DNA from: a virus
Lineage: Duplodnaviria; Caudoviricetes
Length of the DNA: 55,607 nucleotides
Virus record (IMG/VR): IMGVR_UViG_3300030098_002332
Coordinates: 1-55,607 of that record
Reading direction: 5' to 3' (one strand)
Each line of letters opens with the position of its first letter. The first letter of the stretch is position 1. The translations under genes were made by a program, and so were the position numbers. Shown piece after piece: positions 5,214 through 26,235 of the stretch. Under the pieces are notes generated by a model, which made no database searches, was not told the DNA's origin, and worked only from the letters and a program-made list of their open reading frames with translations.

Positions 5214-6392
5214 TTAGGGTAGCCAATTTACGTTATTTAATGATTTTACAGCATTTTTTAACCACTTTTCTTCCTGCGAGTTTTCAACATAAAGTATATA
5301 AATTTCACCTACTTTACCCTCTTGGAATCTAATCAATCTACCTACACGCTGTATCATAGGCAGTGACTTGCTAGTAATACCACACATAACACCCATGTTA
5401 GCGTCAGGTATATCTAGACCCTGATTCAAAGCTTTAGTAGAACACAGTACATTTATCTTACCTGATCTAAAATCTTCTATAGCTTGCTCTCTCTTTTTCT
5501 TAGTTACTTTAGAGTGATAAGAAGCAGACAAAGGGCTAACAGATGCACACATCTGATCTGTAAAATCATTTGCACCACTGAATGCGAGTATCTTGCTATC
5601 CATGTTATTAAGAACTAGTTTCTGAAACTGTGTAATTTTATTGCTAGCAAAATCTACAATCTTTTTACGTTCCCTTATAGCTCTGTAAAACATGACTGCA
5701 CATTTCTTGTCTGCAGGATGCGCATTCTTGTCCCCCATAATTCTTTTTGCCTCGTCAAATGCATTGAACTGTCCAAGCTGGTATTTATAGTAAACAAATG
5801 AGTTGTTTATCTTTTTATATTCATCTTTCTCGGTCGATGTCAATTGCACAGGCATGCAATAAATGTTATAGGGAGAAACTATGCCCTTAGCTACACACTG
5901 ATCTAAAGTAATTTTATAGACAGTAGGTGAAAGTGTAGCTAAAAGCTGTTTATACTCTATTTCTTCTGGTAGTGTAGCAGTCATACACAATAGTCTATCA
6001 TAAGTATTGTTCTCAAAAAACTTACGATACTCCGGCGACAAGCCTAGATGTATCTCATCACACAACACAAGGCTGTAGTGATTACCTACAAGTTTATACG
6101 CACTTTGATAACAAAGAATATCAACGTTATCTAGGCAGTCTTCTAGTCCCCACTTCGTGAACTCTTCTGCAAACTGAGTTTGTAGTTGTACTGTAGGTAC
6201 TAGGATTAAGATTTTACTATCGCTATCAATATTATAAACATGACTAACTGCAAGAACACCACATCTAGATTTCCCAAAACCAGTACCAGCAATAATAGAA
6301 CCGGTATACCCAGCTTGTGCCCAGCTGTTAAGCGCTTTCTTTTGTTCTTCATCTCTTGTTTTATTTATATTCATAGTTATACTGCTTCCCAT
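5214..6392 (-). CDS. Superfamily 2 DExH helicase
   Basis: AGTGFGKS, LVPT, DEIH, TAT, GLDIP, QRVGRLIR. Confidence 0.9.
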   Translation of the reverse strand: MGSSITMNINKTRDEEQKKALNSWAQAGYTGSIIAGTGFGKSRCGVLAVSHVYNIDSDSKILILVPTVQLQTQFAEEFTKWGLEDCLDNVDILCYQSAYKLVGNHYSLVLCDEIHLGLSPEYRKFFENNTYDRLLCMTATLPEEIEYKQLLATLSPTVYKITLDQCVAKGIVSPYNIYCMPVQLTSTEKDEYKKINNSFVYYKYQLGQFNAFDEAKRIMGDKNAHPADKKCAVMFYRAIRERKKIVDFASNKITQFQKLVLNNMDSKILAFSGANDFTDQMCASVSPLSASYHSKVTKKKREQAIEDFRSGKINVLCSTKALNQGLDIPDANMGVMCGITSKSLPMIQRVGRLIRFQEGKVGEIYILYVENSQEEKWLKNAVKSLNNVNWLP

Positions 6393-7868: not shown

Positions 7869-9758
7869 TTATTTTTCCCAGCAGTTACTAACTGATACCT
7901 CAGCTTTTAACAAACCGTTCGTTACTATCTCTAGTGCAGCCTCCTCCATCATTCTTTGCATGTTGTGTGTCCAATCAGATAAATAATCGTTTCTACATAT
8001 TGTATCTATCTGATCATGCACAGTCATGACTAGCTTGACAGGCAGGTCAAATTGATTGATATGATTACGCATCAATATCAACGCTTTCTTAGTCATATCT
8101 GCGCTAGCTCCCTGTATAGGTGTGTTTTTAGATGCACGTTCAATACTACCTAGCTCCATAGATGATGACTTGTTATCCCATATTCTAGGATACCAGTTAG
8201 TAAACCATCTACGTCTGTTATAAGGAGGAAATGTTTTTATATACCCATATTTCTTACCAAAATTACCTAGCTTCTCCAAAAATCCTTTAATTGATGGAAA
8301 AGCTGTAAAATACTTTTCAATAAGTAATTTAGCATCGTCAACAGAAATGTTGAGAGTGTCTGCAAGTTTATGAGGACCCATGCCATAAGCCAGGCCAAAA
8401 TTAATAGTTTTAACATTATTTCTTAGTTTTTTGTGGGAAGGACAATTGCACTTTTGCTTACGACTAAAATAAGCACAATCGTCTTCACCACTATTTAACC
8501 ACTGATCACCATAGACTAACTCAGCACACGTGGAGTGTAGGTCTTCACCATTCTTTAACGCCTCAATCCATACAGGATCTTTAGAACCAAATGCAATAAC
8601 ATTTAACTCTTGACTAGAATAGTCAGCCGAAACAAAACTCCAACCATCGGGTGCAGTGAAGCAATTCCTAAAACTATTATCAGCAGGTATTTGCTGCATG
8701 TTAGGCTTGCTACTACTTACACGGCCGGTGTCTAATATTTGATGAAAACTAGTATGTATTCTTTTATCAGAAGCTAGATTCTTAAAAAATGCATCACCAT
8801 AAGATGTACACAGTTTCATAGCCTCCTTGTATTTTACATACTTGTCTATTAGTGGATATTTAAATCTGTGTTTGTACATCTGTTTACCATTTACATTATC
8901 TAAATCAGGTACAATACACTGAAACACCTCTAGCACTTGCTTTGGTGATGTCCATTTTACATCTACATCTCTAAGCTCTTCTACAGGTGTAAACATGTCT
9001 GCTTGTATGTATTTAGCCACAAACTTTTGTAATCTGTGATCCATCTTAACCATGTTATCTAATGTAGACATCAAAGCATCAGCTTTACTTGTATTTAAAC
9101 TTTCAAGCTCTCTCCATGCTTCTGTATCTAAATCTAAGCCATTGTACTCCATGTCAGCAAAAGCCTTTACTACCTCGTTTTCTAGTTTAACAACATTGTG
9201 CAGTTTATATTTATCTATATCTGCTTGTTGTAGCTCTTTTATTTTACATAGGTATTCTACATCCTTTGCACCATAGATTATCTGATCATCTGTAAAAGGA
9301 TGTCCATGTAAATCTATAAACAAGTTTCTAACCTCCTTGTTTAGCTCTACATTTAAATATCTTTTACATAAATCTTTTAATCCATAACCTAGAGATTTAC
9401 CACAGCTTATAATTAACTCTACAAGAAATGTATCATAAATACCTTCACAGGTTATATTAGCCCATTTTTTAATAAACTTGTAATCAAACTTAGCATTGTG
9501 AAATATCTTTACAATATCATTTGATTCTAATATCTCTCGTAAAGGCTCTATACTTACAAATCTTGTATCTATAATATATTGATTATTAGTATCACCTATC
9601 TGAAACATTATCATCTTTTTACATGTAAAGTCAAATCCTTCTGTCTCCGTGTCTACACCCAAAACTTTCTTAGTTTTACAATATTCTACTACATCATCTA
9701 TAGTAGCATCTGTAAAGTTTGCGTTTAAACTCTTAGTGTTACTAATAAAGTATATCAT
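7869..9758 (-). CDS. polA: Family A DNA polymerase with 3'-5' exonuclease
   Basis: Exo DTET, HNAKFD, YGAKD; TGRVSS..PNMQQIP; motif A ADYSSQEL; motif B KTINFGLAYG; motif C VHDQI. Confidence 0.95.
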   Translation of the reverse strand: MIYFISNTKSLNANFTDATIDDVVEYCKTKKVLGVDTETEGFDFTCKKMIMFQIGDTNNQYIIDTRFVSIEPLREILESNDIVKIFHNAKFDYKFIKKWANITCEGIYDTFLVELIISCGKSLGYGLKDLCKRYLNVELNKEVRNLFIDLHGHPFTDDQIIYGAKDVEYLCKIKELQQADIDKYKLHNVVKLENEVVKAFADMEYNGLDLDTEAWRELESLNTSKADALMSTLDNMVKMDHRLQKFVAKYIQADMFTPVEELRDVDVKWTSPKQVLEVFQCIVPDLDNVNGKQMYKHRFKYPLIDKYVKYKEAMKLCTSYGDAFFKNLASDKRIHTSFHQILDTGRVSSSKPNMQQIPADNSFRNCFTAPDGWSFVSADYSSQELNVIAFGSKDPVWIEALKNGEDLHSTCAELVYGDQWLNSGEDDCAYFSRKQKCNCPSHKKLRNNVKTINFGLAYGMGPHKLADTLNISVDDAKLLIEKYFTAFPSIKGFLEKLGNFGKKYGYIKTFPPYNRRRWFTNWYPRIWDNKSSSMELGSIERASKNTPIQGASADMTKKALILMRNHINQFDLPVKLVMTVHDQIDTICRNDYLSDWTHNMQRMMEEAALEIVTNGLLKAEVSVSNCWEK

Positions 9759-9760
9759 AA

Positions 9761-10009
9761 TTAATAAATTTTGTTATCAGCATAATGCTCTTCTTCTTCT
9801 AACTGCTGTTGTATATGCTGATCATACTTAGCAACCAGTTTGTTGTCATCAACATACTTAACTACACTTTTAGCGAAAGACTTAACAAAAGTTTGTCCTC
9901 CAAAATTAAAGCTAGTTGAGTCTGTTAAGACGCATTTAATGTATAACTGTTTGAATCTCTCATAAGATCCATCCATAATCATACTATAAATCCATTTCAT
10001 TTGTCCCAT
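9761..10009 (-). CDS. Hypothetical protein
   Basis: ORF with A-rich leader, adjacent to polA. Confidence 0.65.
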   Translation of the reverse strand: MGQMKWIYSMIMDGSYERFKQLYIKCVLTDSTSFNFGGQTFVKSFAKSVVKYVDDNKLVAKYDQHIQQQLEEEEHYADNKIY

Positions 10010-10045
10010 TGTTTTGTGTTTAATTAATACTTGTTTAATTAGTTT

Positions 10046-10083
10046 AGAAAAATAAAGGACTATAAATTAATATAGCCCTTTAT
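10046..10083 (-). terminator. Intrinsic terminator-like hairpin
   Basis: Minus strand ATAAAGGGCTATA-TTAATT-TATAGTCCTTTAT followed by TTTTCT. Confidence 0.6.
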
Positions 10084-10199
10084 GATTCTTACTAAAATAC
10101 TGATTTTAAAGTCTTATCTGACTGGTTTTTGATTAAAGTCGTGAGTATCAGATACTTACAACATTATATAAACAATTCTTTTATAACTTTGTACTCAAT

Positions 10200-10268
10200 T
10201 AGTTTACAAATATAACAAAAAGAACTACACTACACAAGCAATGTAGAACTTTTTATTATATATTAACT
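10200..10268 (-). promoter_or_regulatory. Bacteroidota-type promoter (TAnnTTTG) with upstream TATATAATA box
   Basis: Minus strand TATATTTG (10214-10207) followed by TAAACTA; upstream AGTTAATATATAATAAAA resembles the boxes at 18571 and 23523. Confidence 0.6.
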
Positions 10269-10270
10269 AA

Positions 10271-10906
10271 TTACATGCCTACTCCCAATACCTCAACCTC
10301 ATCTGCTGTTACACCTGTATTAGGTTTTACAGTAGTTTGAAGGCTAGTATCAGAAGCTAGAAATACATGTGCAGGATTACTACCTTTTGGTAATAAATCT
10401 ACATATGAGTTTCTAAATATATGCTGACCTTTGTGTAAGATCGCATCTCCTCCTTTACCTGCTCTTTTACAAAAATGCTCAACTACATCCAATCCGTTAT
10501 CCTCTGCATAGTCTTTCTGTGATTTTGTAGGCTCTAGTGTCTCCTCAAGTCTAACTCTAAAGAATACGTTGTTAAATGTAGGATTTAATATATTCAAATC
10601 CATCATCTCAACTTTTTTTCCGTTAGCTTTCTCTCCCAAATACCAGTCACCATCATCTCCAAAGTTTGTTTTAAATATTTTAGATGCATCTGCTATCTCA
10701 GCAACAGCCCAACCTCTAGCTGCTCCAGAGCTAAATCTATTATCACTAGCATTTAATGCTGTTAGTGCAGACATTGGTCTATCTTTTGATGTAACTTTCT
10801 CAGCAAACTCAAGCTGTATTTTGTCTGTTGATGTTTTGTATGCTTTTGTTATCATACATTCTCCTACTTTTAATGTGTTTAAGTCACCACTGTTTAATTC
10901 ATTCAT
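10271..10906 (-). CDS. Hypothetical early protein (possible OB-fold)
   Basis: 211-aa ORF with conserved TAAATCAATTAAAC-ATG leader. Confidence 0.7.
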   Translation of the reverse strand: MNELNSGDLNTLKVGECMITKAYKTSTDKIQLEFAEKVTSKDRPMSALTALNASDNRFSSGAARGWAVAEIADASKIFKTNFGDDGDWYLGEKANGKKVEMMDLNILNPTFNNVFFRVRLEETLEPTKSQKDYAEDNGLDVVEHFCKRAGKGGDAILHKGQHIFRNSYVDLLPKGSNPAHVFLASDTSLQTTVKPNTGVTADEVEVLGVGM

Positions 10907-10924
10907 GTTTAATTGATTTAATTA

Positions 10925-11185
10925 TTAATAATTGTTATTGATTCTATATTCTTCAAGCTCCTTATTAGTATGTTCTGTAGTATCTACAGGATTCTCCCAA
11001 TAAAATAGCTCTGGATGTACATCTTTTACATTATGTGTACAACTAGTACACTCAGCAATAAAATGTATTGCATCCATCTTGTCTGTAAAGGTTTTGATAC
11101 GTGACGATGTAATCTCATCACGATGACAGTCATGATTACCTTTGGAATCACAACCGTAGATAATTTTAATCTCTTTCATAGGCAT
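10925..11185 (-). CDS. Hypothetical early protein, Cys/His-containing
   Basis: Same 17-nt leader as the 10271-10906 gene; CxxC. Confidence 0.65.
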   Translation of the reverse strand: MPMKEIKIIYGCDSKGNHDCHRDEITSSRIKTFTDKMDAIHFIAECTSCTHNVKDVHPELFYWENPVDTTEHTNKELEEYRINNNY

Positions 11186-11196
11186 GTTTAATTGAT

Positions 11197-11310
11197 TTAG
11201 TTAATAATATGGTTTTCTATAAGTAATGCAACAATGATAAGTAATATCCCACAATAACTGTAGGATAATACTCTCATTGAATATTTGTAACTATCATTTT
11301 TATACATCAT
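11197..11310 (-). CDS. Small hydrophobic peptide (37 aa, not in ORF track)
   Basis: MMYKNDSYKYSMRVLSYSYCGILLIIVALLIENHIIN; ATGA overlap with the upstream gene. Confidence 0.45.
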   Translation of the reverse strand: MMYKNDSYKYSMRVLSYSYCGILLIIVALLIENHIIN

Positions 11311-11534
11311 TTTACTTCATTGTCTTTCATCATCTTCTCCATTTCAACGTATAGTTTTTCATAGTCTTGCTCAAGAGCTTTGTTCTTTTCTTTTAACTCA
11401 ATAATCTCAAGTTTATATTGAACAGCTTCTGTTGTTAGTCTGTCAACATCTTGCAATGCTCTTGTTAATTCTAGATTCTTAGTTCTAATTTTTTGTTCTT
11501 CATCATAATTGATGTTGTTAATTGGTAGTGCCAT
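11307..11534 (-). CDS. Coiled-coil early protein directly downstream of the twister ribozyme
   Basis: Heptad pattern; AATTAAAC-ATG leader. Confidence 0.7.
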   Translation of the reverse strand: MALPINNINYDEEQKIRTKNLELTRALQDVDRLTTEAVQYKLEIIELKEKNKALEQDYEKLYVEMEKMMKDNEVK

Positions 11535-11562
11535 GTTTAATTAATTTTAGTTAATATTTTAG

Positions 11563-11629
11563 CTAATTGTGCTCACTCTGTATTTTCACGGGCTTGTGAC
11601 CGTCCTTGGCTACATTAAGCACGAATTAG
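11563..11629 (-). ncRNA. Twister ribozyme (type P1)
   Basis: Minus strand GUGCU-UAA-UGUA-GC-CAAGG-ACGG-UCACAAG-CCCGU-GAAAA-UACA-GAGUG-AGCAC. P1 GUGCU/AGCAC, P2 UGUA/UACA, P4 ACGG/CCGU, pseudoknots CAC/GUG and GC/GC. Predicted cleavage U/A between 11617 and 11616. Confidence 0.9.
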
Positions 11630-12104
11630 GGGATTACAAGTCCCAAAGTAATACCATCAGGTTTTTACACCTGTAAATCTCGATACATATTATACATCTC
11701 CCAATGTATTCTTATAATTACTAATCCACTTGGACGTCATAATTACATCAAATAATCTACTACAGATTAAAATATACTATCATCAGTCAAAGGCGTGACA
11801 TCATAGATAGTTTAGTATCATACTAACAATCAGTTTGTTTTTACTTAATTATTAGTTATTACTTTAGATGTATCCAACTGTTAAGTTAGTGAAGCTATAA
11901 CATTTGTTATAACCTATTCGTCTGGATGACTATACATCTCTGTCCACTCTTGCTAGTACAAGTGTTAACGACAGTTCTAATTCTAAGGAGTCTTGCAATA
12001 CTCCCTACGCTATTCTGTTCTGGTCTCTATTACCGAGTGTGGTAGCCAGTTCCCCTATTTATCCACTTTTTACTATTAGTCTCCTGTAAGGACACACTAA
12101 TAGT
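11627..12104 (-). ncRNA. Large multi-branch structured RNA candidate (unassigned)
   Basis: No ORF; abutting inverted-repeat-closed domains 11645-11865, 11866-11939, 11940-11974, plus hairpins 11987-12004, 12020-12049, 12072-12104; long-range TAGGGGA/TCCCCTA (11627-33/12051-57). Strand inferred from flanking genes. Confidence 0.55.
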
Positions 12105-12112
12105 CATATTTA

Positions 12113-12188
12113 AAATAAAGAATAGTCCACATGCCTTACGGTTTACCACTGCAGGTTGTTATCCAAGACGTTCTACTATTCTTTATTT
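12113..12188 (-). ncRNA. Stem-closed RNA module A
   Basis: Perfect 14-bp IR AAATAAAGAATAGT/ACTATTCTTTATTT enclosing a more GC-rich 48-nt core. Confidence 0.6.
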
Positions 12189-12213
12189 GTGTTTAGTTAA
12201 TGTTTAGGTTAAA

Positions 12214-12303
12214 AACTATCATGAGTGTCTTAGGTAATTATTTAGACTATTAGATACACACGACCTAACCAAGACCATTACCCTTGGATCTCTCATGATA
12301 GTT
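12214..12303 (-). ncRNA. Stem-closed RNA module B (junction with pseudoknot)
   Basis: Perfect 12-bp IR AACTATCATGAG/CTCATGATAGTT; inner hairpin CCAAG/CUUGG whose loop GGUAAU is complementary to downstream AUUACC. Confidence 0.6.
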
Positions 12304-12310
12304 ATTATAA

Positions 12311-12421
12311 AACAACAACAGTAAGTTTACTACATGTTCTAGGTGAATATTAGAATATTCGATAAGTTTTAAATGTGGTTTCATCATCAGAACACTCCAC
12401 TTTACCTTACCTGTTGTTGTT
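12311..12421 (-). ncRNA. Stem-closed RNA module C (hammerhead-like core or pseudoknot)
   Basis: Perfect 11-bp IR AACAACAACAG/CTGTTGTTGTT plus GTAAG/CTTAC; core CUGAUGA-U-GAAAC. Confidence 0.55.
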
Positions 12422-12423
12422 AT

Positions 12424-12510
12424 AATGCAACCGTTGCCTCTATCTCTGGTCGGTTAACTACTAAGCACCAACTAGTATTTATGCTTTTCGTGATTATTAT
12501 AAGTTGCATT
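12424..12510 (-). ncRNA. Stem-closed RNA module D
   Basis: 8-bp IR AATGCAAC/GTTGCATT; inner AAGCAU/GUGCUU and alternative GUUGGU/ACCGAC pairing. Confidence 0.45.
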
Positions 12511-12530
12511 TGATTAGAAATGAACAGTTT

Positions 12531-12755
12531 CTACACTTGTTCAGGTGTTATTATTTTGTAACTATGGTTGTCCCAGAGTTTACGACTACATCTTCTTACA
12601 AGTGCAGTTGTTCTTCCTTCTAATGGAGTTTCATGTACATATTCTACAAACTTGTCATGTTTTTTAACAAGTATACAATTAGATCTTCCAGACTCCATGT
12701 TAATTATTATACATCCTTCATTTCCTAAAGAGTATTCATTCATATTTATTCTCAT
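12531..12755 (-). CDS. Hypothetical early protein
   Basis: 74-aa ORF with A-rich leader. Confidence 0.6.
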   Translation of the reverse strand: MRINMNEYSLGNEGCIIINMESGRSNCILVKKHDKFVEYVHETPLEGRTTALVRRCSRKLWDNHSYKIITPEQV

Positions 12756-12906
12756 AGTGTTATATTGTATTATATTAGTATTCTAGTTAATTGTCAAATT
12801 GTGTAGAAAAGTGGTGAATGTGATGTGGTACACACACTAACGAACAGTGTAATATACCACCCCACCCATAGATTAGTAACAACATTGTTACAATCCCCAC
12901 CTATAT

Positions 12907-12933
12907 AAAAAAAAGAAGAAGTCCTTAGACTTC
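12907..12933 (-). terminator. Terminator overlapping the stop of the first leftward gene
   Basis: Minus strand GAAGTC-TAAG-GACTTC then TTCTTTTTTTT. Confidence 0.6.
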
Positions 12934-13125
12934 AACTTTTAGTGGTTTACCAGAATTGATTTCGTCCCACCTGTCGAAGGCAGATTCAAGACTGGTGTAC
13001 ACAACTTTTTCTTTGGTGTGAGTATCAGTTTTGGAATCAAAGGATTCTTCCGTGATTCCTACTCTACATGGTGTTCCGTTCTTGTCCACTTTAGTGTCAA
13101 GAACTTTTACTACTGTTAGTATCAT
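12925..13125 (-). CDS. Hypothetical early protein (first leftward gene)
   Basis: 66-aa ORF with more GC-rich codon usage than its neighbours. Confidence 0.6.
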   Translation of the reverse strand: MILTVVKVLDTKVDKNGTPCRVGITEESFDSKTDTHTKEKVVYTSLESAFDRWDEINSGKPLKVEV

Positions 13126-13162
13126 AATTAAAAGTATTTTAGTTAGGATAGTTAATATTATT

Positions 13163-13202
13163 TGTGGGGGGTACCCTAAACCCCCAACACTAGCCGGGGT
13201 GT
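13163..13202. other. GC-rich palindromic element at the strand switch
   Basis: TGTGGGGGGTACCCTAAACCCCCAACACTAGCCGGGGTGT in otherwise AT-rich DNA. Confidence 0.5.
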
Positions 13203-13285
13203 CTGTACAAGGAGGACCGTACGCTCACAGATCTACCTCAAAAAAATTTTTTATATTTTATTTTTTTATTCCATTTATTTTATTT

Positions 13286-13293
13286 TATCTTTG
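13286..13293 (+). promoter_or_regulatory. Bacteroidota -7 promoter box
   Basis: TATCTTTG(CA) after a T-rich tract. Confidence 0.6.
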
Positions 13294-13297
13294 CACC

Positions 13298-13540
13298 GCA
13301 ACAATATTCATCCCTCGGTAACCAAAAAAGGGAAAAGACATCGGATTGTAGGGCTAAATAAGTCTAGAGTTTTCTCCGGTAGTTGCAAAAGAACAAGTGT
13401 ATAAGTTCTAGTTGGGGTAAATTACACATAGGTAAGTGTGATGAATTAACATCAGTTTTATTATCCCTGGGTCTCTGTAAAAAGAAGCACTGCTAGAGTG
13501 AAATCCAAGTTTGAAAGAGAAATCCTAAGGGGGATAACTA
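13298..13540 (+). ncRNA. ~240-nt structured ncRNA candidate
   Basis: Begins just after the promoter. Helices GCAAC/GTTGC, TCCCT/AGGGA, ATCGGA/TCCGGT, AGAAC/GTTCT, TTACAC/GTGTGA, GATG/CATC, TTATCCC/GGGATAA, TCTCT/AGAGA; no credible ORF. Confidence 0.5.
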
Positions 13541-13567
13541 TATCCTAATCAAAAATACTGTAAAACA

Positions 13568-13600
13568 TTTGGAAGTATAAAAAAATTGTTTATATATTTG
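13568..13600 (+). promoter_or_regulatory. Bacteroidota sigma70 promoter (-33/-7)
   Basis: TTTG (13568-71), 21-nt spacer, TATATTTG (13593-600); 17 nt upstream of GroES ATG. Confidence 0.75.
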
Positions 13601-13617
13601 CACAAAAATATATAGAT

Positions 13618-13881
13618 ATGAAATTTATACCAAACGGATCGTGGGTTGTCCTACCTGACCCAAGTAAAAAGAAAACAGATTCTGGAATTATCTTAGATGA
13701 TAAGACTGCCAGAAAACAATCAACTAACATTTTAGAGGTATTGGCTGTAGGCCCACACTGTACTTTTGTAAAAAAAGGTGATACTGTTATGGTTGATCCT
13801 AGAACAGAAGCTGTAATTGCAAATATAGAAGACACGCAATACTTATTAGTTGGAGAACATCAATTATTAGGTAAGTGGTAA
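13618..13881 (+). CDS. groES: GroES/Cpn10-like co-chaperonin
   Basis: FIPNGSWVVL, KTDSGIIL, EVLAVGP, VKKGDTV. Confidence 0.85.
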   Translation: MKFIPNGSWVVLPDPSKKKTDSGIILDDKTARKQSTNILEVLAVGPHCTFVKKGDTVMVDPRTEAVIANIEDTQYLLVGEHQLLGKW

Positions 13882-14117
13882 AAGGATCTGTTACAATAGA
13901 CTTAAAAGATTACCACGCTTTACTAGAATCAGCAGAAAAAACGATAGAAGTAAAAGAAAAGTTTTTTACAGCCGGTAAAGAACTGCAGGTTTTTTTGTCT
14001 TTTTTAACGTCTAGAGTAGATATAGAGAAATATGTAGAGGAATTTAACAGACAATCTAAAACATCTAGAATAGTCTTTGAAGGTACAACAGCAAAAATAG
14101 AATTAAAAGATGAATAA
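13875..14117 (+). CDS. Hypothetical protein
   Basis: Coupled ORF (GTG start). Confidence 0.6.
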   Translation: MVKGSVTIDLKDYHALLESAEKTIEVKEKFFTAGKELQVFLSFLTSRVDIEKYVEEFNRQSKTSRIVFEGTTAKIELKDE

Positions 14118-14442
14118 AAGAAAAATAACAGTTAATATAGATAGTACCTATAAATATTTGCAATTATGGAATGGCATTTTTAATTTAACAGATAAAGAGC
14201 TTTCTATTTTAGCATCTTTTATAGATACTAATATAATTAAAGAGGATATTAACATATGTAGTGTATCTAATAAAAAATCTGTAGCTAAAATAATGGGAAT
14301 AAAAGATTATAATACTTTAAATAACTATGTAAAAAAATTTAAAGATAAAGGAGCGATAATACTATCAAATAATACTTATAAACTTAATCCTTTTTTAAAT
14401 CCAGATACAGATTCAGTAGAAATAACAATATCAAGAGGATAA
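14110..14442 (+). CDS. Winged-helix (RepL-like) DNA-binding protein
   Basis: LTDKELSIL...VAKIMGI...LNNYVKKFKDKG...YKLNP. Confidence 0.6.
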   Translation: MNKRKITVNIDSTYKYLQLWNGIFNLTDKELSILASFIDTNIIKEDINICSVSNKKSVAKIMGIKDYNTLNNYVKKFKDKGAIILSNNTYKLNPFLNPDTDSVEITISRG

Positions 14443-14606
14443 TGTTTAGCTTACTAGTAGTTAGTTATTATAATATAGATATATATGAAATTTTAATTAT
14501 ACAATCACCTAGTGGAGATTTATTATCAATAAAAATAGAAGAATATGAGCCAGAACAACGAGCAAAAGCCCCCGAGCATTTTCAAAATGATGAAAACGTT
14601 CACTAA
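14442..14606 (+). CDS. Small hypothetical protein (54 aa, not in ORF track)
   Basis: TAATG-coupled; MFSLLVVSYYNIDIYEILIIQSPSGDLLSIKIEEYE... Confidence 0.45.
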   Translation: MFSLLVVSYYNIDIYEILIIQSPSGDLLSIKIEEYEPEQRAKAPEHFQNDENVH

Positions 14607-14841
14607 TGAGTTAGCAAATTGGATAAAAGAGGGGGCACCAAATGTAACACCAGAGTCTTATGCAAAAAGATTAGATATATGTAACGAATGTGAACACATA
14701 AATAAAGTATCAATGAGATGTATGGCTTGTGGTTGTTTATTAGAGCATAAGGCAAAGTGGAGAACTACAGATTGCCCAAAAAAGAAATGGCCTAAAGAAT
14801 ATACAGACGATTTACCTAAGCCAGGAGATGAGCAGGAATAA
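14545..14841 (+). CDS. Cys-rich metal-binding protein (DUF6171-like)
   Basis: RLDICNECEH...RCMACGC...CPKKKW. Confidence 0.7.
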   Translation: MSQNNEQKPPSIFKMMKTFTNELANWIKEGAPNVTPESYAKRLDICNECEHINKVSMRCMACGCLLEHKAKWRTTDCPKKKWPKEYTDDLPKPGDEQE

Positions 14842-15052
14842 AAAATTAATTATATACTATTTGGCAAATAAATATAATTTATCATTAAGCAAAATAGAAA
14901 AAATAGTTAACCATCAATTTAAATATGTAGAGAAGATAATGAAAGAAGGTAAATTTGAAAGTATTCGTTTACCATATTTTGGTAAATTTTCTGTAAAACA
15001 AAGTAGATTAAAGCATATAAATAAAAACAAAAATGATAAGGATAAGATTTAG
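14828..15052 (+). CDS. HU/IHF-like DNA-binding protein
   Basis: SIRLPYFGKFSVK. Confidence 0.7.
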   Translation: MSRNKKLIIYYLANKYNLSLSKIEKIVNHQFKYVEKIMKEGKFESIRLPYFGKFSVKQSRLKHINKNKNDKDKI

Positions 15053-16020: not shown

Positions 16021-16319
16021 TGGATTTTTTAGAAGACATGGAACTCTATGAAGAGGCAATGAAAAACGCTTATCAAATTATAACTAAAAAGAAAACTTTA
16101 GATGACATTTACTATGATCTAGAAGAAGGAAAAATAAATAGATTACCACTACCTTTTGACCCTCTTAGTGAGGATGGTAGAAGTGAAGATGTAATAGATG
16201 TTGTTATAGAGTATTTTACTAGTATAGAAGAATACGAAAAATGTGCAGAGTTAGTTAAAATTAAAAATAAATGTTTAAAAACACCGATAGAGTCAGAAGA
16301 TCAGCAATATCTTTTATAG
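16020..16319 (+). CDS. Small protein with UVR-like motif
   Basis: EEYEKCAELVKI. Confidence 0.6.
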   Translation: MDFLEDMELYEEAMKNAYQIITKKKTLDDIYYDLEEGKINRLPLPFDPLSEDGRSEDVIDVVIEYFTSIEEYEKCAELVKIKNKCLKTPIESEDQQYLL

Positions 16320-18235
16320 ATAATGGTTATTATACAGCTGCTTTACCTGGAACTAAAGATTATTATGATTTTTGGGACGAGGAAAGAAACAGATGTTTGT
16401 ATGGATACACAGATGGTGATATAAGTGTTACAGGATTTCATTATTTTTACCTAAACTATTGTCCTATTGACAGAGCGGTAGATGAAATAATGCCAGATGG
16501 TACTGTACAGTCTAAACGTGAGCGTACATTCCCTAGATTTTACGATGGTGACTGGGAATATTTCCAAGAGATAGATAAAGCAAGAGCACAGAACAAACAT
16601 ATGATTGTTTTGAAAGCAAGGCGTAAAGGATATTCTTATAAAGCTGGATCTATGCTTGCACGTAACTATTTTTTTGTACGTAATTCTAAAAACTTTGTAT
16701 TTGCATCACAAAAAGAATATTTAATTGGTGATGGATTACTTTCTAAAGCGTGGGAGTTTTTATCTTTTATAGATGACCATACTGCATGGGCACAACCAAG
16801 ATTGAGAGATAGAGAAATGACTAAAATGGCTGGATATAAAAAGAAAGTAAATGGTATAGAGATAGAAATGGGTATGAAGTCACAAATTATGGGGGTATCA
16901 CTAAAAGATAACCCAGATAAGGTAAGGGGTAAGGCAGGTGAGCTAGTATTCTTTGAAGAAGCCGGATCATTTCCTGGATTATTAAAAGCATGGGAGGTGA
17001 CTATGCCAACAATGCGTCAAGGAGCAAAAACATTAGGATTAATGATTGCATTTGGTACAGGTGGTACAGAAGGCGCAGATTTTGAGGCTATGGAAGAGAT
17101 ATTTTACAACCCAGAAGCATATGATTGTATGAACTATGATAATATATGGGATGAAGGAGCAATGGGTAGTCAATGTGGATATTTTATACCTATACAAAAA
17201 AATTTAGATGGATTTATAGATGATGAAGGTAATTCTTTAGCAAATAAAGCTATAGAATATGAAAAAGAAATGAGGGAAAAGAAGAAAGGTGCTGCAGATG
17301 CAAAATCATTAGACCAATATATAGCTGAGCACCCTTTTTCTCCTCAAGAAGCTACATTACAAGTAACAGCTAATTTATTTGATGTAGCATCTTTACAAGA
17401 ACAGTATAATAACATAAAAGCAAATAATTTACACTCTGTAGGTACAGTTGGTAGATTATATTATGCATCTGACAATCAAATTAAATTTAAACCAGACGGA
17501 GATCTAAAACAAATACTAAAATTTCCACATAGAAAAGATGATAATACTACAGGAGCTGTTGTTATATATGAATCACCGTATAAAAATCAGAAACAACAAG
17601 TTCCTTTAAATATGTATGTAATATGTCATGACCCTTATGGTCAAAATCAGTCTGCAGATAGCTCATCTTTAGGAGCGGCGTATGTATTAAAAAGACCAAA
17701 CAATATTTCTCATCCTGATGATATTATTGTAGCATCTTATGTAGGTAGACCAAAAACACAAGATGAATATAATAGAAATTTGTTTATGTTAGCAGATTAT
17801 TATGGGTGTAAGATAGGATTTGAGAACGATCGAGGTGAAGTAATAGCTTATGCAAAAAGACATAGAAAGTTACATAAACTACAGGAAGAATTTGAGATGT
17901 TAGATAAAAAAGAATTGAGAAGTAGAAATGTAAAACGTCAATATGGTATGCATATGACAGAAGCAAGGAAAAGGCAAGGTGAGATATATATAAGAGATTG
18001 GTTAAATACTGTAAGAAGAACTGATGAGAATGGAAATAAATTATTAAACTTGCATAAGATATATGATCCTGCATTATTAACAGAGTTAATTAAATTTAAT
18101 CATGCTGGTAACTTTGACCGGGTAATGGCGTTAATGATTGGTATGTATCACACTAGAGAATTGTATAATGCAGAAGTAAAAGAAATACTAGAAGATAGGT
18201 CAGCCGATAAATGGTTTGATCAAAATTATTATTAA
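16271..18235 (+). CDS. terL: Terminase large subunit
   Basis: LKARRKGYS (Walker A), VFFEEAG (Walker B), GTGG, nuclease ICHDPY, FENDRG, FDRVMA. Confidence 0.92.
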   Translation: MFKNTDRVRRSAISFIDNGYYTAALPGTKDYYDFWDEERNRCLYGYTDGDISVTGFHYFYLNYCPIDRAVDEIMPDGTVQSKRERTFPRFYDGDWEYFQEIDKARAQNKHMIVLKARRKGYSYKAGSMLARNYFFVRNSKNFVFASQKEYLIGDGLLSKAWEFLSFIDDHTAWAQPRLRDREMTKMAGYKKKVNGIEIEMGMKSQIMGVSLKDNPDKVRGKAGELVFFEEAGSFPGLLKAWEVTMPTMRQGAKTLGLMIAFGTGGTEGADFEAMEEIFYNPEAYDCMNYDNIWDEGAMGSQCGYFIPIQKNLDGFIDDEGNSLANKAIEYEKEMREKKKGAADAKSLDQYIAEHPFSPQEATLQVTANLFDVASLQEQYNNIKANNLHSVGTVGRLYYASDNQIKFKPDGDLKQILKFPHRKDDNTTGAVVIYESPYKNQKQQVPLNMYVICHDPYGQNQSADSSSLGAAYVLKRPNNISHPDDIIVASYVGRPKTQDEYNRNLFMLADYYGCKIGFENDRGEVIAYAKRHRKLHKLQEEFEMLDKKELRSRNVKRQYGMHMTEARKRQGEIYIRDWLNTVRRTDENGNKLLNLHKIYDPALLTELIKFNHAGNFDRVMALMIGMYHTRELYNAEVKEILEDRSADKWFDQNYY

Positions 18236-24780: not shown

Positions 24781-26235
24781 ATGGCAATTAACGGAACAAA
24801 CATAAGCGTTCAAAAAACGTTTTACAATGACTCGCAAATGACAGACATGAACAGTCTATCAGCTGCATTGTTGGCAAAACCGACTGAGCTGTCTCCAATT
24901 ATTACTCATTTAGCAGGAAAAGACGATAAAAGATTTCCACTATCTTTCTTAACGGAAGGTGTTGGTAACGTAAAATCTATTGACCGCTTGGAGTATGAAT
25001 ATCGTGTGGCAACACATAGATTGAGAACGAGACCAGTAGCGGCGACACCAGCATCAACTTCAAATGTTGGTCTAGGAGGAGCAAGCTTCGAGCTTGAATT
25101 CCCTGACAAGCATTTTGTATTTCCATACGTATTAGTATCTCAAGGAGGTACTCAAGCACGTATAATGAAAGAGCCTCAGCAAGTGGCTGGTGGAACTTCA
25201 TACAAGTATACATTACAATTAGTAAATCCAGCAGCTACAGCAACTGTTGCAGCAGCAGATATTACAGTAGGAGCTCTTTGGGCTCAAATGTATGCACCAG
25301 TAGGAACTGACTTCTCTAGAGGTAATGCTTCTAACTGGGAAACTCCAGGTAAAGTAAGAAATAAACTAACTACAGTTAGAAAATCTTACCACATGTCTGG
25401 AAACGCTAAAGATTATGTAGCAGAGTTTGCTCTACCAACTAAAGGTGGATCTACTACTAAACTTTGGATGGACTACGAAGAGTACTTACACATGCTTGAC
25501 TTTAAAGAAGAGTGTGAAATGTACTACTGGTATGGTCAAAAGACTTATGACTCAAACGGGATCACTTACATGAAAGATGAAAATGGTCAACCAGTTGTTG
25601 TAGGTCCTGGTCTATTAGAGCAAATAGTAAATAAAGATACTTACTCTACTATGACTGAAACAAAAATTAAAAACATCATCGGTGATTTATTTTATCAAAT
25701 GACTGATGCTGCTCAAAAACAAGTAACTCTTTACACTGGTACTGGAGGTGCTAGAGAATTTGATGAGGCGTTAAAAGCTCACTTCTCAGCTGCAGGTAAT
25801 GCATTTAAAGTTGGAGGTGAAAATAGATTCATCACAGGTTCTGGTAGATCATTAGGTTTAACTGGTTACTTTACTACGTACGAGCACGTAGACGGACACA
25901 CTGTAAATGTGGTAAAATTACCATTATTTGATCATGGTGCGGTTGCTCAAGCTCGTGCAAAACACCCTGTTACTGGATACTCTTTAGAATCATACAGAAT
26001 GGTATTTGTTGATCAATCAAATTATGATGGTCAGAATAACCTACAAATGATTTCTAAGAAGGGCCGTGAGGCGATGAGATGGTGTGTAGCTGGATCTGTA
26101 GTCCCTAGAGGATTTAGTTCTACTGACGCTAGAGCATCTGATGTTGATGGGGCGTCTGTACACATGTTAAAAACTGCAGGTATCGCATTAAGACGTTTTG
26201 ATACTTCTTTAGACATTGAGTGTACAGCATCTTAA
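24781..26235 (+). CDS. Major capsid protein (crAss-like)
   Basis: 484 aa with biased codons; FPLSFLTEG, NKLTTVRKS, GPGLLEQI, YTGTGG..EF; followed by hairpin. Confidence 0.85.
   Translation: MAINGTNISVQKTFYNDSQMTDMNSLSAALLAKPTELSPIITHLAGKDDKRFPLSFLTEGVGNVKSIDRLEYEYRVATHRLRTRPVAATPASTSNVGLGGASFELEFPDKHFVFPYVLVSQGGTQARIMKEPQQVAGGTSYKYTLQLVNPAATATVAAADITVGALWAQMYAPVGTDFSRGNASNWETPGKVRNKLTTVRKSYHMSGNAKDYVAEFALPTKGGSTTKLWMDYEEYLHMLDFKEECEMYYWYGQKTYDSNGITYMKDENGQPVVVGPGLLEQIVNKDTYSTMTETKIKNIIGDLFYQMTDAAQKQVTLYTGTGGAREFDEALKAHFSAAGNAFKVGGENRFITGSGRSLGLTGYFTTYEHVDGHTVNVVKLPLFDHGAVAQARAKHPVTGYSLESYRMVFVDQSNYDGQNNLQMISKKGREAMRWCVAGSVVPRGFSSTDARASDVDGASVHMLKTAGIALRRFDTSLDIECTAS

Follow-up and report, generated by a model that had tools for sequence, protein, structure and literature searches.

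A minimal twister ribozyme adjoining a large conserved RNA upstream of the replication genes of a marine phage

Genomic setting of the locus

The stretch analysed here (hereafter the window) is a whole IMG/VR record of 55,607 nt, with a completeness estimate of 64%. It carries two divergent gene modules: a replication module on the minus strand, with genes for a DNA polymerase (7869-9758) and a helicase (5214-6392), and a structural module on the plus strand, with genes for the large terminase (16271-18235) and the major head protein (24781-26235). The strand switch between them falls at ~12-14 kb. The head protein is ~31% identical to its counterparts in crAss-like phages; records of Flavobacterium phages matched it as well. 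Megablast of positions 9000-15000 returned no close GenBank phage, ARAGORN found no tRNA or tmRNA in the window, and every relative found in the analysis derives from a marine virome or metagenome. Between the divergent modules, the intergenic region (13120-13560) is itself ~73-90% identical in more than 20 loci; its invariant stretches are long, and it contains a few hairpins with covariation (13 of 38 predicted pairs compensated). It may represent an RNA, on either strand, or a replication origin.

Close to the strand switch, the minus strand bears a sigma-70-type promoter-like site (12769-12797) in which TTGACA and TATAAT are separated by 17 nt and all 12 consensus positions match. Alignment revealed that this block is kept in 12 relatives and in nine DNA-polymerase loci, although near-perfect sigma-70 sites upstream of the unit described below occur only in the window, L032 and L056. 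The site lies ~1.15 kb upstream of the ribozyme that is the subject of this study and is a candidate start for the transcript that would include it; the cargo that follows the conserved block differs between phages. A canonical TTGACA/TATAAT pair would be unexpected if the host belongs to the Bacteroidota, which we take to be the hosts of crAss-like phages. In the window ORF74 lies downstream of the promoter-like site, and ORF66 is followed by a terminator-like hairpin that has a T run (12918-12933, minus strand). Between this hairpin and the promoter-like site, just upstream of the latter, lies a G-rich conserved hairpin region (12800-12917, minus strand) that includes GGUGGGGAUUG... and a long GGUGGUAUAUUACAC... 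hairpin, and this region is ~76-81% identical in L056, L048, L080, L082, L099, L113 and L119.

At the other end of the locus, an AU-rich leader (11535-11568, minus strand) with two copies of ATTAAYTAAA separates the ribozyme from the start codon of the next gene. The first-pass annotation had placed the ribozyme 28 nt upstream of this gene, a distance counted from position 11563, where its span ended; measured from the ribozyme end at 11569, the spacing to the ATG at 11534 is 34 nt. The leader motif occurs seven times in the window (minus-strand positions include 2763, 10019, 11196, 11536, 11546 and 12192), five of them no more than ~20 nt upstream of minus-strand ORF starts and four at 1-11 nt. 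The copy at 12192-12201 is followed by no ORF, as if a gene start behind this leader-like sequence had decayed. The same leader type follows the ribozyme in relatives and also precedes other minus-strand genes.

The first ORF after the ribozyme (11307-11534, minus strand) encodes 75 aa of charged and leucine-rich composition and belongs to no family, with no PHROG match and only two sub-threshold Pfam matches. The product had been described as an early coiled-coil protein: "coiled-coil" fits both the composition and the two sub-threshold matches, and "early" is plausible, with a conserved sigma-70-like promoter ~1.15 kb upstream. Among relatives the first gene downstream of the ribozyme differs, and in 25 of 43 evaluable units the ribozyme is followed within 60 nt by the start of an ORF of 40 aa or more (median 38 nt, range 11-221 nt).

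A minimal type-P1 twister ribozyme

Analysis of the minus strand identified a type-P1 twister ribozyme at 11569-11622, in the minimal form that is without P0, P3 and P5. Its helices are P1 (G11622-U11618 with A11573-C11569, GUGCU/AGCAC), P2 (U11614-A11611 with U11582-A11579, UGUA/UACA) and P4 (A11603-G11600 with C11591-U11588, ACGG/CCGU), joined by the pseudoknots T1 (C11598-C11596 with G11576-G11574, CAC/GUG) and T2 (G11610 C11609 with G11593 C11592, GC/GC). The UAA position in the Rfam alignment predicts the scissile bond between U11617 and A11616. Cleavage by a twister leaves an upstream product that ends in a 2',3'-cyclic phosphate and a downstream product that starts with a 5'-OH.

The Rfam model RF03160 (twister-P1) matches 11621-11570 on the minus strand over its full length (model positions 1-68 of 68) with 54.8 bits, corresponding to E = 9.8e-12 for a 401-nt search and 1.4e-9 for the whole window. 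Across the whole window this is the sole match at E <= 0.1 among 4,227 Rfam 15 models, and none of 14 control genomes gave an RF03160 match. At gathering thresholds no Rfam model matches the window, the twister standing at 54.8 bits against a cut-off of 67.2, a score that reflects Rfam curation and is not a structural feature of the class. The shortfall arises because 16 model positions of the optional P3 stem are deleted here. According to PMC6154101, P3 is optional and present in 78% of annotated twisters, and a twister form without P0, P3 and P5 has been solved (PDB 4OJI).

The first-pass annotation had recognised a type-P1 twister with the P1, P2, P4 and CAC/GUG pairings and cleavage at 11617/11616. 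The full-length model match (E = 1.4e-9) with all helices and both pseudoknots bears out this assignment, every listed pairing was found on the minus strand, and the predicted cleavage site agrees; the check that it had proposed against the Rfam model thus gives a match significant by E-value, though under the gathering cut-off. Within its span of 11563-11629 the ribozyme part holds, whereas 11629-11623 belongs instead to the 3' strand of a helix that closes the RNA upstream.

The architecture is well preserved in detail. The consensus alignment to RF03160 retains UAA, GC, CGGUC-CAAGCCCG, AAA and GAG-G, and the conserved Rfam core is intact apart from a single T1 pair, which is compensated, and a U-to-A substitution at a junction where viral examples also vary. 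A 60-nt stretch containing the twister folds into P1, P2 and P4 at -15.6 kcal/mol (z = -2.89); of 200 shuffles, one folds equally well. Our own covariance model (R1) gives the window twister 78.7 bits. The window twister shares 22 invariant columns with 51 other viral twisters, many of these columns being fixed by the pattern with which the set was collected.

That pattern, a degenerate description of P3-less type-P1 twisters, retrieved 60 stretches from viral contigs, nine of which are relatives of the window phage. Across the 52 distinct sequences, 94.6% of helix cells in the five helices are paired, as opposed to 78.5% in shuffles (none of 500 as high) and 20.9-45.6% with slid partners. Changes on both sides were observed in 12 of 18 pairs; compensatory changes affect 5 of 5 pairs in P1, 4 of 4 in P2 and 2 of 4 in P4, and the middle T1 pair is AU in 45 sequences, UA in 4 and CG in 3. 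Because the collecting pattern fixed the core, only P1, P2, the outer P4 pairs and the middle T1 pair count as independent covariation, and these free positions do covary.

Comparable diversification is evident within the phage family itself (50 sequences). P2 alternates between UGUA/UACA and AUCA/UGAU, with pair types UA:31/AU:19, GC:31/UA:19 and CG:40/UA:10, while P4 alternates between ACGG/CCGU and CUGG/CCAG (CG:29/AU:21 and UA:29/CG:21), and one P1 pair is UA in 25 sequences and CG in 24. T2, invariant as GC/GC in the pattern-collected set of 52, is compensated to AC/GU in L181 and L131, two diverged twisters (37-49 bits) that the covariance model detected and the regular expression missed; in L087 a C-to-U change in T2 yields a G-U pair. 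Collectively, the element is a real type-P1 twister in its minimal form, and it is probably active as a ribozyme.

A large structured RNA coupled to the twister

Directly 5' of the ribozyme, the minus strand encodes a conserved structured non-coding RNA of ~390 nt (approximately 11623-12005, with conservation from ~12013). It opens with a hairpin, H1 (12005-11986), for which a nested double pseudoknot was considered and rejected in favour of a simple hairpin. A 7-bp long-range helix closes the RNA, formed by GAAUUAG (11983-11977) and CUAAUUC (11629-11623), and its last nucleotide immediately precedes P1. No ORF of at least 40 aa is present on either strand in the ~400 nt 5' of the ribozyme. 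Among relatives the RNA is 80-97% identical, compared with 66-78% for the flanking genes.

Comparative folding supports this structure. RNAalifold on 11 sequences predicted 104 pairs, 58 of them compensated. The 89 pairs outside the ribozyme have 92.9% of cells paired in the same 11 sequences, and 51 of them are compensated, versus 29.2 +/- 3.0 in shuffles (0 of 500 as high) and 8-17 with slid partners, the latter comparison being flattered by a structure derived from the same alignments in which the pairs were counted. In 50 sequences the number of compensated pairs rises to 61 of 89. Folding of the window sequence by itself gives the same helices with an MFE z-score of -4.56, and both the size of the covariation excess and this single-sequence fold point to a real structure. 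Two positions of the closing helix show pair types GC:34/AU:15 and AU:26/UA:23 (50 sequences). Alternations between G-C and G-U are frequent, as in the closing helix (GC:25/GU:25), and are consistent with an RNA of the minus strand and not of its complement.

The large RNA corresponds to no Rfam family: over 11400-12560 at E <= 10, only chance-level snoRNA models and one lncRNA model matched. Group I intron, RNase P, HDV-like and hatchet models, considered for the RNA or its 5' end, gave no match. A pattern for its 5' domain was absent from 185,579 bacterial and archaeal species (one genome each).

The sequences upstream of the RNA vary between phages, some of them being terminator-like hairpins, and no conserved promoter was found in these flanks directly upstream of it. 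The motif WATATARC before the RNA was rejected as a phage promoter, with 22 occurrences against 24 expected. Relative to L032, the window carries a 92-nt insertion (12014-12105, minus strand) that lies exactly on the 5' border of the large RNA and includes a small hairpin whose stem covaries and whose ~20-nt loop is conserved (ACCACACUCGGUAAUAGAGA), without an Rfam match. A hairpin with the ACCACACUCGGUAAUAGAGA loop also precedes the large RNA in L063, L064, L071 and L124.

The junction between the two RNAs is strikingly uniform. The closing helix and P1 occupy adjacent alignment columns (454 and 455) with zero spacer and no insertion in 50 of 50 sequences, and the same contiguity appears in the single-sequence fold. 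Using a pattern built from the 5' domain of the large RNA alone, we retrieved 14 viral and 58 metagenome loci, or 73 entries with the window, of which 60 extend at least 520 nt downstream and the other 13 are too short to judge. A twister follows 352-419 nt downstream in all 60, 59 being found by the strict pattern and the remaining one being L087 with its G-U pair in T2. The large RNA invariably has the ribozyme as its final element, and twister subtypes and large-RNA subtypes are found in mixed combinations. Since contigs are duplicated across collections, the 64 complete units reduce to 48 distinct ones, all from marine viromes or metagenomes and thus from one habitat type. L086 matches the window with 99.7% identity along 1,587 nt and probably represents the same phage population. 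The first-pass annotation had noted structured RNA upstream and a gene directly downstream; both are borne out, and what it missed is the fusion to one specific ~390-nt RNA.

In the diverged L181 and L131, the ~560-nt non-coding region before the twister (L181:5740-6384, L131:130-752) differs or has strongly diverged from that of the window. The logic of the junction is nevertheless kept in both: a hairpin is followed by CUAGUUC, which pairs with GAACUAG ~310 nt upstream, and P1 comes next.

Despite this strict coupling, the pair is not fixed in the phage group but forms an accessory cassette, a feature on which the first-pass annotation had not remarked. We kept the best 80 of 330 DNA-polymerase relatives (69-95% amino acid identity), 34 of which have at least 4.5 kb of upstream sequence. 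A covariance-model search of whole loci on both strands, superseding a regular-expression count of 4 of 34, identified the twister in only five of these 34 (L140, L158, L181, L186 and L190); it also found the twister in four loci with less than 4.5 kb upstream.

The closest relative, L129, whose polymerase is 95% identical, is without the cassette. BLAST and reading of the junctions revealed that a 1,188-nt segment of the window (11569-12756, minus strand), holding ORF74 (12755-12531), other non-coding modules, the large RNA and the twister, is absent from L129. There, the promoter's ...AATATAACAC is joined straight to the leader AATTAC... of the homologue of the 75-aa gene. The segment in the window ends with the twister's ...GAGCAC, that is, with the last base of P1, and the indel boundaries are ambiguous by a 3-nt CAC microhomology common to both junctions. 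The idea that the ribozyme sets a transcript boundary thus gains indirect support, as the edge of the L129 indel coincides with the ribozyme 3' end and the ribozyme always stands last in the RNA. L179, compared with L140 and L068 as a second possible clean indel, was rejected, having a different ORF in that place.

Within the segment lies a second non-coding stretch (12281-12539, minus strand), whose core at ~12510-12425 is a ~90-nt module closed by AUGCAAC/GUUGCAU. This module recurs at 79-93% identity in L069, L122, L080, L113, L116, L111 and L119 and was also read in L146 and L179; the L179 copy stands in a 5' leader without a ribozyme.

The large-RNA region is present in RNA libraries. In two marine metatranscriptome runs of one study, which contain 0.13 and 0.09 of the sampled words, assembled contigs cover 11699-12005 at 100% identity and ~12281-12539 at 99-100%, together with pieces of genes on both sides. 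Contigs of both runs stop at 12005, the first base of H1, which is a weak hint that the 5' end of the large RNA lies there, given that assembled contigs cannot show RNA ends or levels. Gaps, depths and the stops at 11699/11700 carry no weight, and these stops, falling short of 11617, neither show nor exclude the cut.

Proposed role and relation to known systems

We propose that self-cleavage forms the 3' end of the large RNA and at the same time detaches the inserted cassette from the mRNA of the downstream replication genes, a reading to which we assign a probability of roughly 0.6. The composite RNA consists of a ~390-nt multi-helix RNA with a 7-bp closing helix and the twister P1 at the next nucleotide. 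It is part of an accessory cassette whose insertion site is flanked by the conserved promoter on one side and, on the other, by the AU-rich leader with which the replication operon opens at its first gene. Folding during transcription, the twister would cut between U11617 and A11616. The large RNA would be left with the 3' end ...CUAAUUC-GUGCUU and a 2',3'-cyclic phosphate. On the other side of the cut, the mRNA would carry a 5'-OH and have 48 nt of ribozyme body and the 34-nt leader ahead of its start codon. As P1 has 5 bp, the two cleavage products may stay non-covalently paired. The 5' untranslated region of the cut mRNA would then be close to that of cassette-less relatives transcribed directly from the promoter, so that 3'-end formation of a non-coding RNA and operon insulation would be combined in a single element.

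Of these two roles, 3'-end formation is favoured as the source of the strict coupling, because the L179 leader carries a module (window ~12510-12425) without a ribozyme, which also counts against a general need for insulation, and because cassette-less relatives require no ribozyme. More tentatively, and at somewhat less than even odds, the large RNA may represent a new class of phage RNA that acts in trans and depends on a built-in twister for its maturation. A bolder variant would have the large RNA gate the ribozyme and so time when the replication-gene mRNA is let go.

The first-pass annotation had suggested that the cut would set transcript boundaries and stability without host RNases. 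In such a reading from the side of the mRNA, the ribozyme would give the downstream genes a structured 5'-OH end against 5'-dependent decay, and the upstream RNA would be incidental cargo. Nearly the whole ribozyme would indeed remain on the mRNA 5' end after the cut, followed by the conserved leader type. Most unrelated viral twisters of the minimal form sit in intergenic positions between co-directional ORFs: a same-strand stop lies at most 60 nt before 32 of 50, and an ATG ORF begins no more than 60 nt beyond 19 of 47. For bacterial twisters, a part in the processing of polycistronic mRNAs has been suggested as well (PMC6765202). This reading nevertheless leaves unexplained why the ~390-nt RNA always occurs with the twister (60 of 60) and why the closing helix is fused to P1 without a spacer (50 of 50). 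Relatives of the L129 type, which lack the cassette, also appear to have the same promoter and downstream gene with no ribozyme; because L129 manages without one, the downstream mRNA would not need the ribozyme as such, and we consider this explanation unlikely. Less likely again is that the large RNA senses a ligand, a protein or temperature and controls the formation of P1 and the twister, and hence downstream mRNA output. The contiguity of the closing helix and P1 would permit stacking, and the large RNA is bigger and better conserved than a protective 3' structure requires; yet neither a riboswitch nor any other Rfam family matches it, and we saw no alternative pairing that would sequester the twister strands.

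The patchy distribution among close relatives (5 of 34) is what one would expect if the RNA and twister were a selfish mobile cassette spreading between phages, with the ribozyme serving the element in excision or circularisation. The occurrence of the unit behind many different upstream modules, the mixed combinations of twister and RNA subtypes, and the clean indel boundary with its 3-nt microhomology point the same way. Each unit, however, has a single ribozyme and so does not make its own 5' end; no gene for a reverse transcriptase, integrase or endonuclease was seen next to it; and the L129 indel is larger than the unit, including ORF74 and other modules, all of which renders this origin improbable. 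Scarcely credible is a chance resemblance or an inactive relic, as the sub-gathering Rfam score could be taken to mean: the window E-value is 1.4e-9, core positions are kept in all relatives and the helices change by compensated substitutions. Formation of the large-RNA 3' end together with release of the operon mRNA accordingly remains the reading that we prefer.

In size class, multi-domain covariation, phage association and lack of a known function, the large RNA resembles ornate bacterial and phage RNAs such as GOLLD and ROOL, although the models of these families gave no match to 11400-12560 at E <= 10. We know of no built-in ribozyme in either family. The twister itself follows minimal type-P1 twisters (RF03160) in the order P1, UAA site, P2, T2, P4 with the T1/T2 loop, P2', T1' and P1'; what sets it apart is that P1 runs straight into the closing helix of a large RNA. 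The engineered insulator RiboJ, which is derived from a hammerhead ribozyme, offers a parallel in position, visible here from the comparison with L129. In RiboJ, as outlined in PMC6206723, the ribozyme stands between a variable upstream transcript and the leader and produces a uniform mRNA start; that system is synthetic, whereas the upstream part is here a conserved RNA and probably the point of the arrangement.

Among natural systems, the theta ribozymes located beside phage tRNAs are likewise phage ribozymes adjoining a structured non-coding RNA, with RNA end processing as the obvious job, in parallel with the window twister (PMC10879173). They are HDV-like, partnered with tRNAs and found in gut phages, in contrast to a twister with a 390-nt RNA in marine ones. 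RNA viruses of fungi and plants also carry hammerhead, HDV-like and twister ribozymes in their 5' UTRs just before ORFs; self-cleavage is there linked to translation initiation, and DNA-phage ribozymes were set aside as already known (PMC13725137). Those are eukaryotic RNA viruses, unlike the DNA phage with a bacterial-type leader considered here.

As far as could be checked, the ribozyme belongs to an ordinary known class, and the composite and its partner RNA are new: in the accessible part of the literature on twisters with phage, crAss or non-coding RNA, supplementary motif lists aside, we found no description of the combination. According to a 2019 review (PMC6765202), the biological part that self-cleaving ribozymes play in bacteria is, glmS apart, "largely elusive". 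In the present sample a twister is joined, with no exception, to a single partner RNA and a single genomic boundary, which yields a hypothesis that can be tested at the bench. Should it hold, this would be the first twister from a bacterium or phage to which a job can be assigned, namely formation of the 3' end of a functional RNA together with operon insulation. The survey also brought to light a large, strongly covarying RNA of marine crAss-like phages, unrecognised by Rfam and present in RNA libraries. Its patchy presence among near-identical phages supplies natural genomes "with" and "without" the cassette for comparison.

Outside this phage family, a distant search with the unit in 50,697 GenBank phage records gave no DNA match beyond the twister core. 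The core itself has ~90% matches in MT835475.1 (72147-72190) and in LR596903.1 (Roseburia phage Shimadzu, 24288-24329), with no annotated feature at either place. In six unrelated viral contigs (L008, L012, L021, L029, L040 and L043), two minimal twisters lie on the same strand, ~320-1,160 nt apart.
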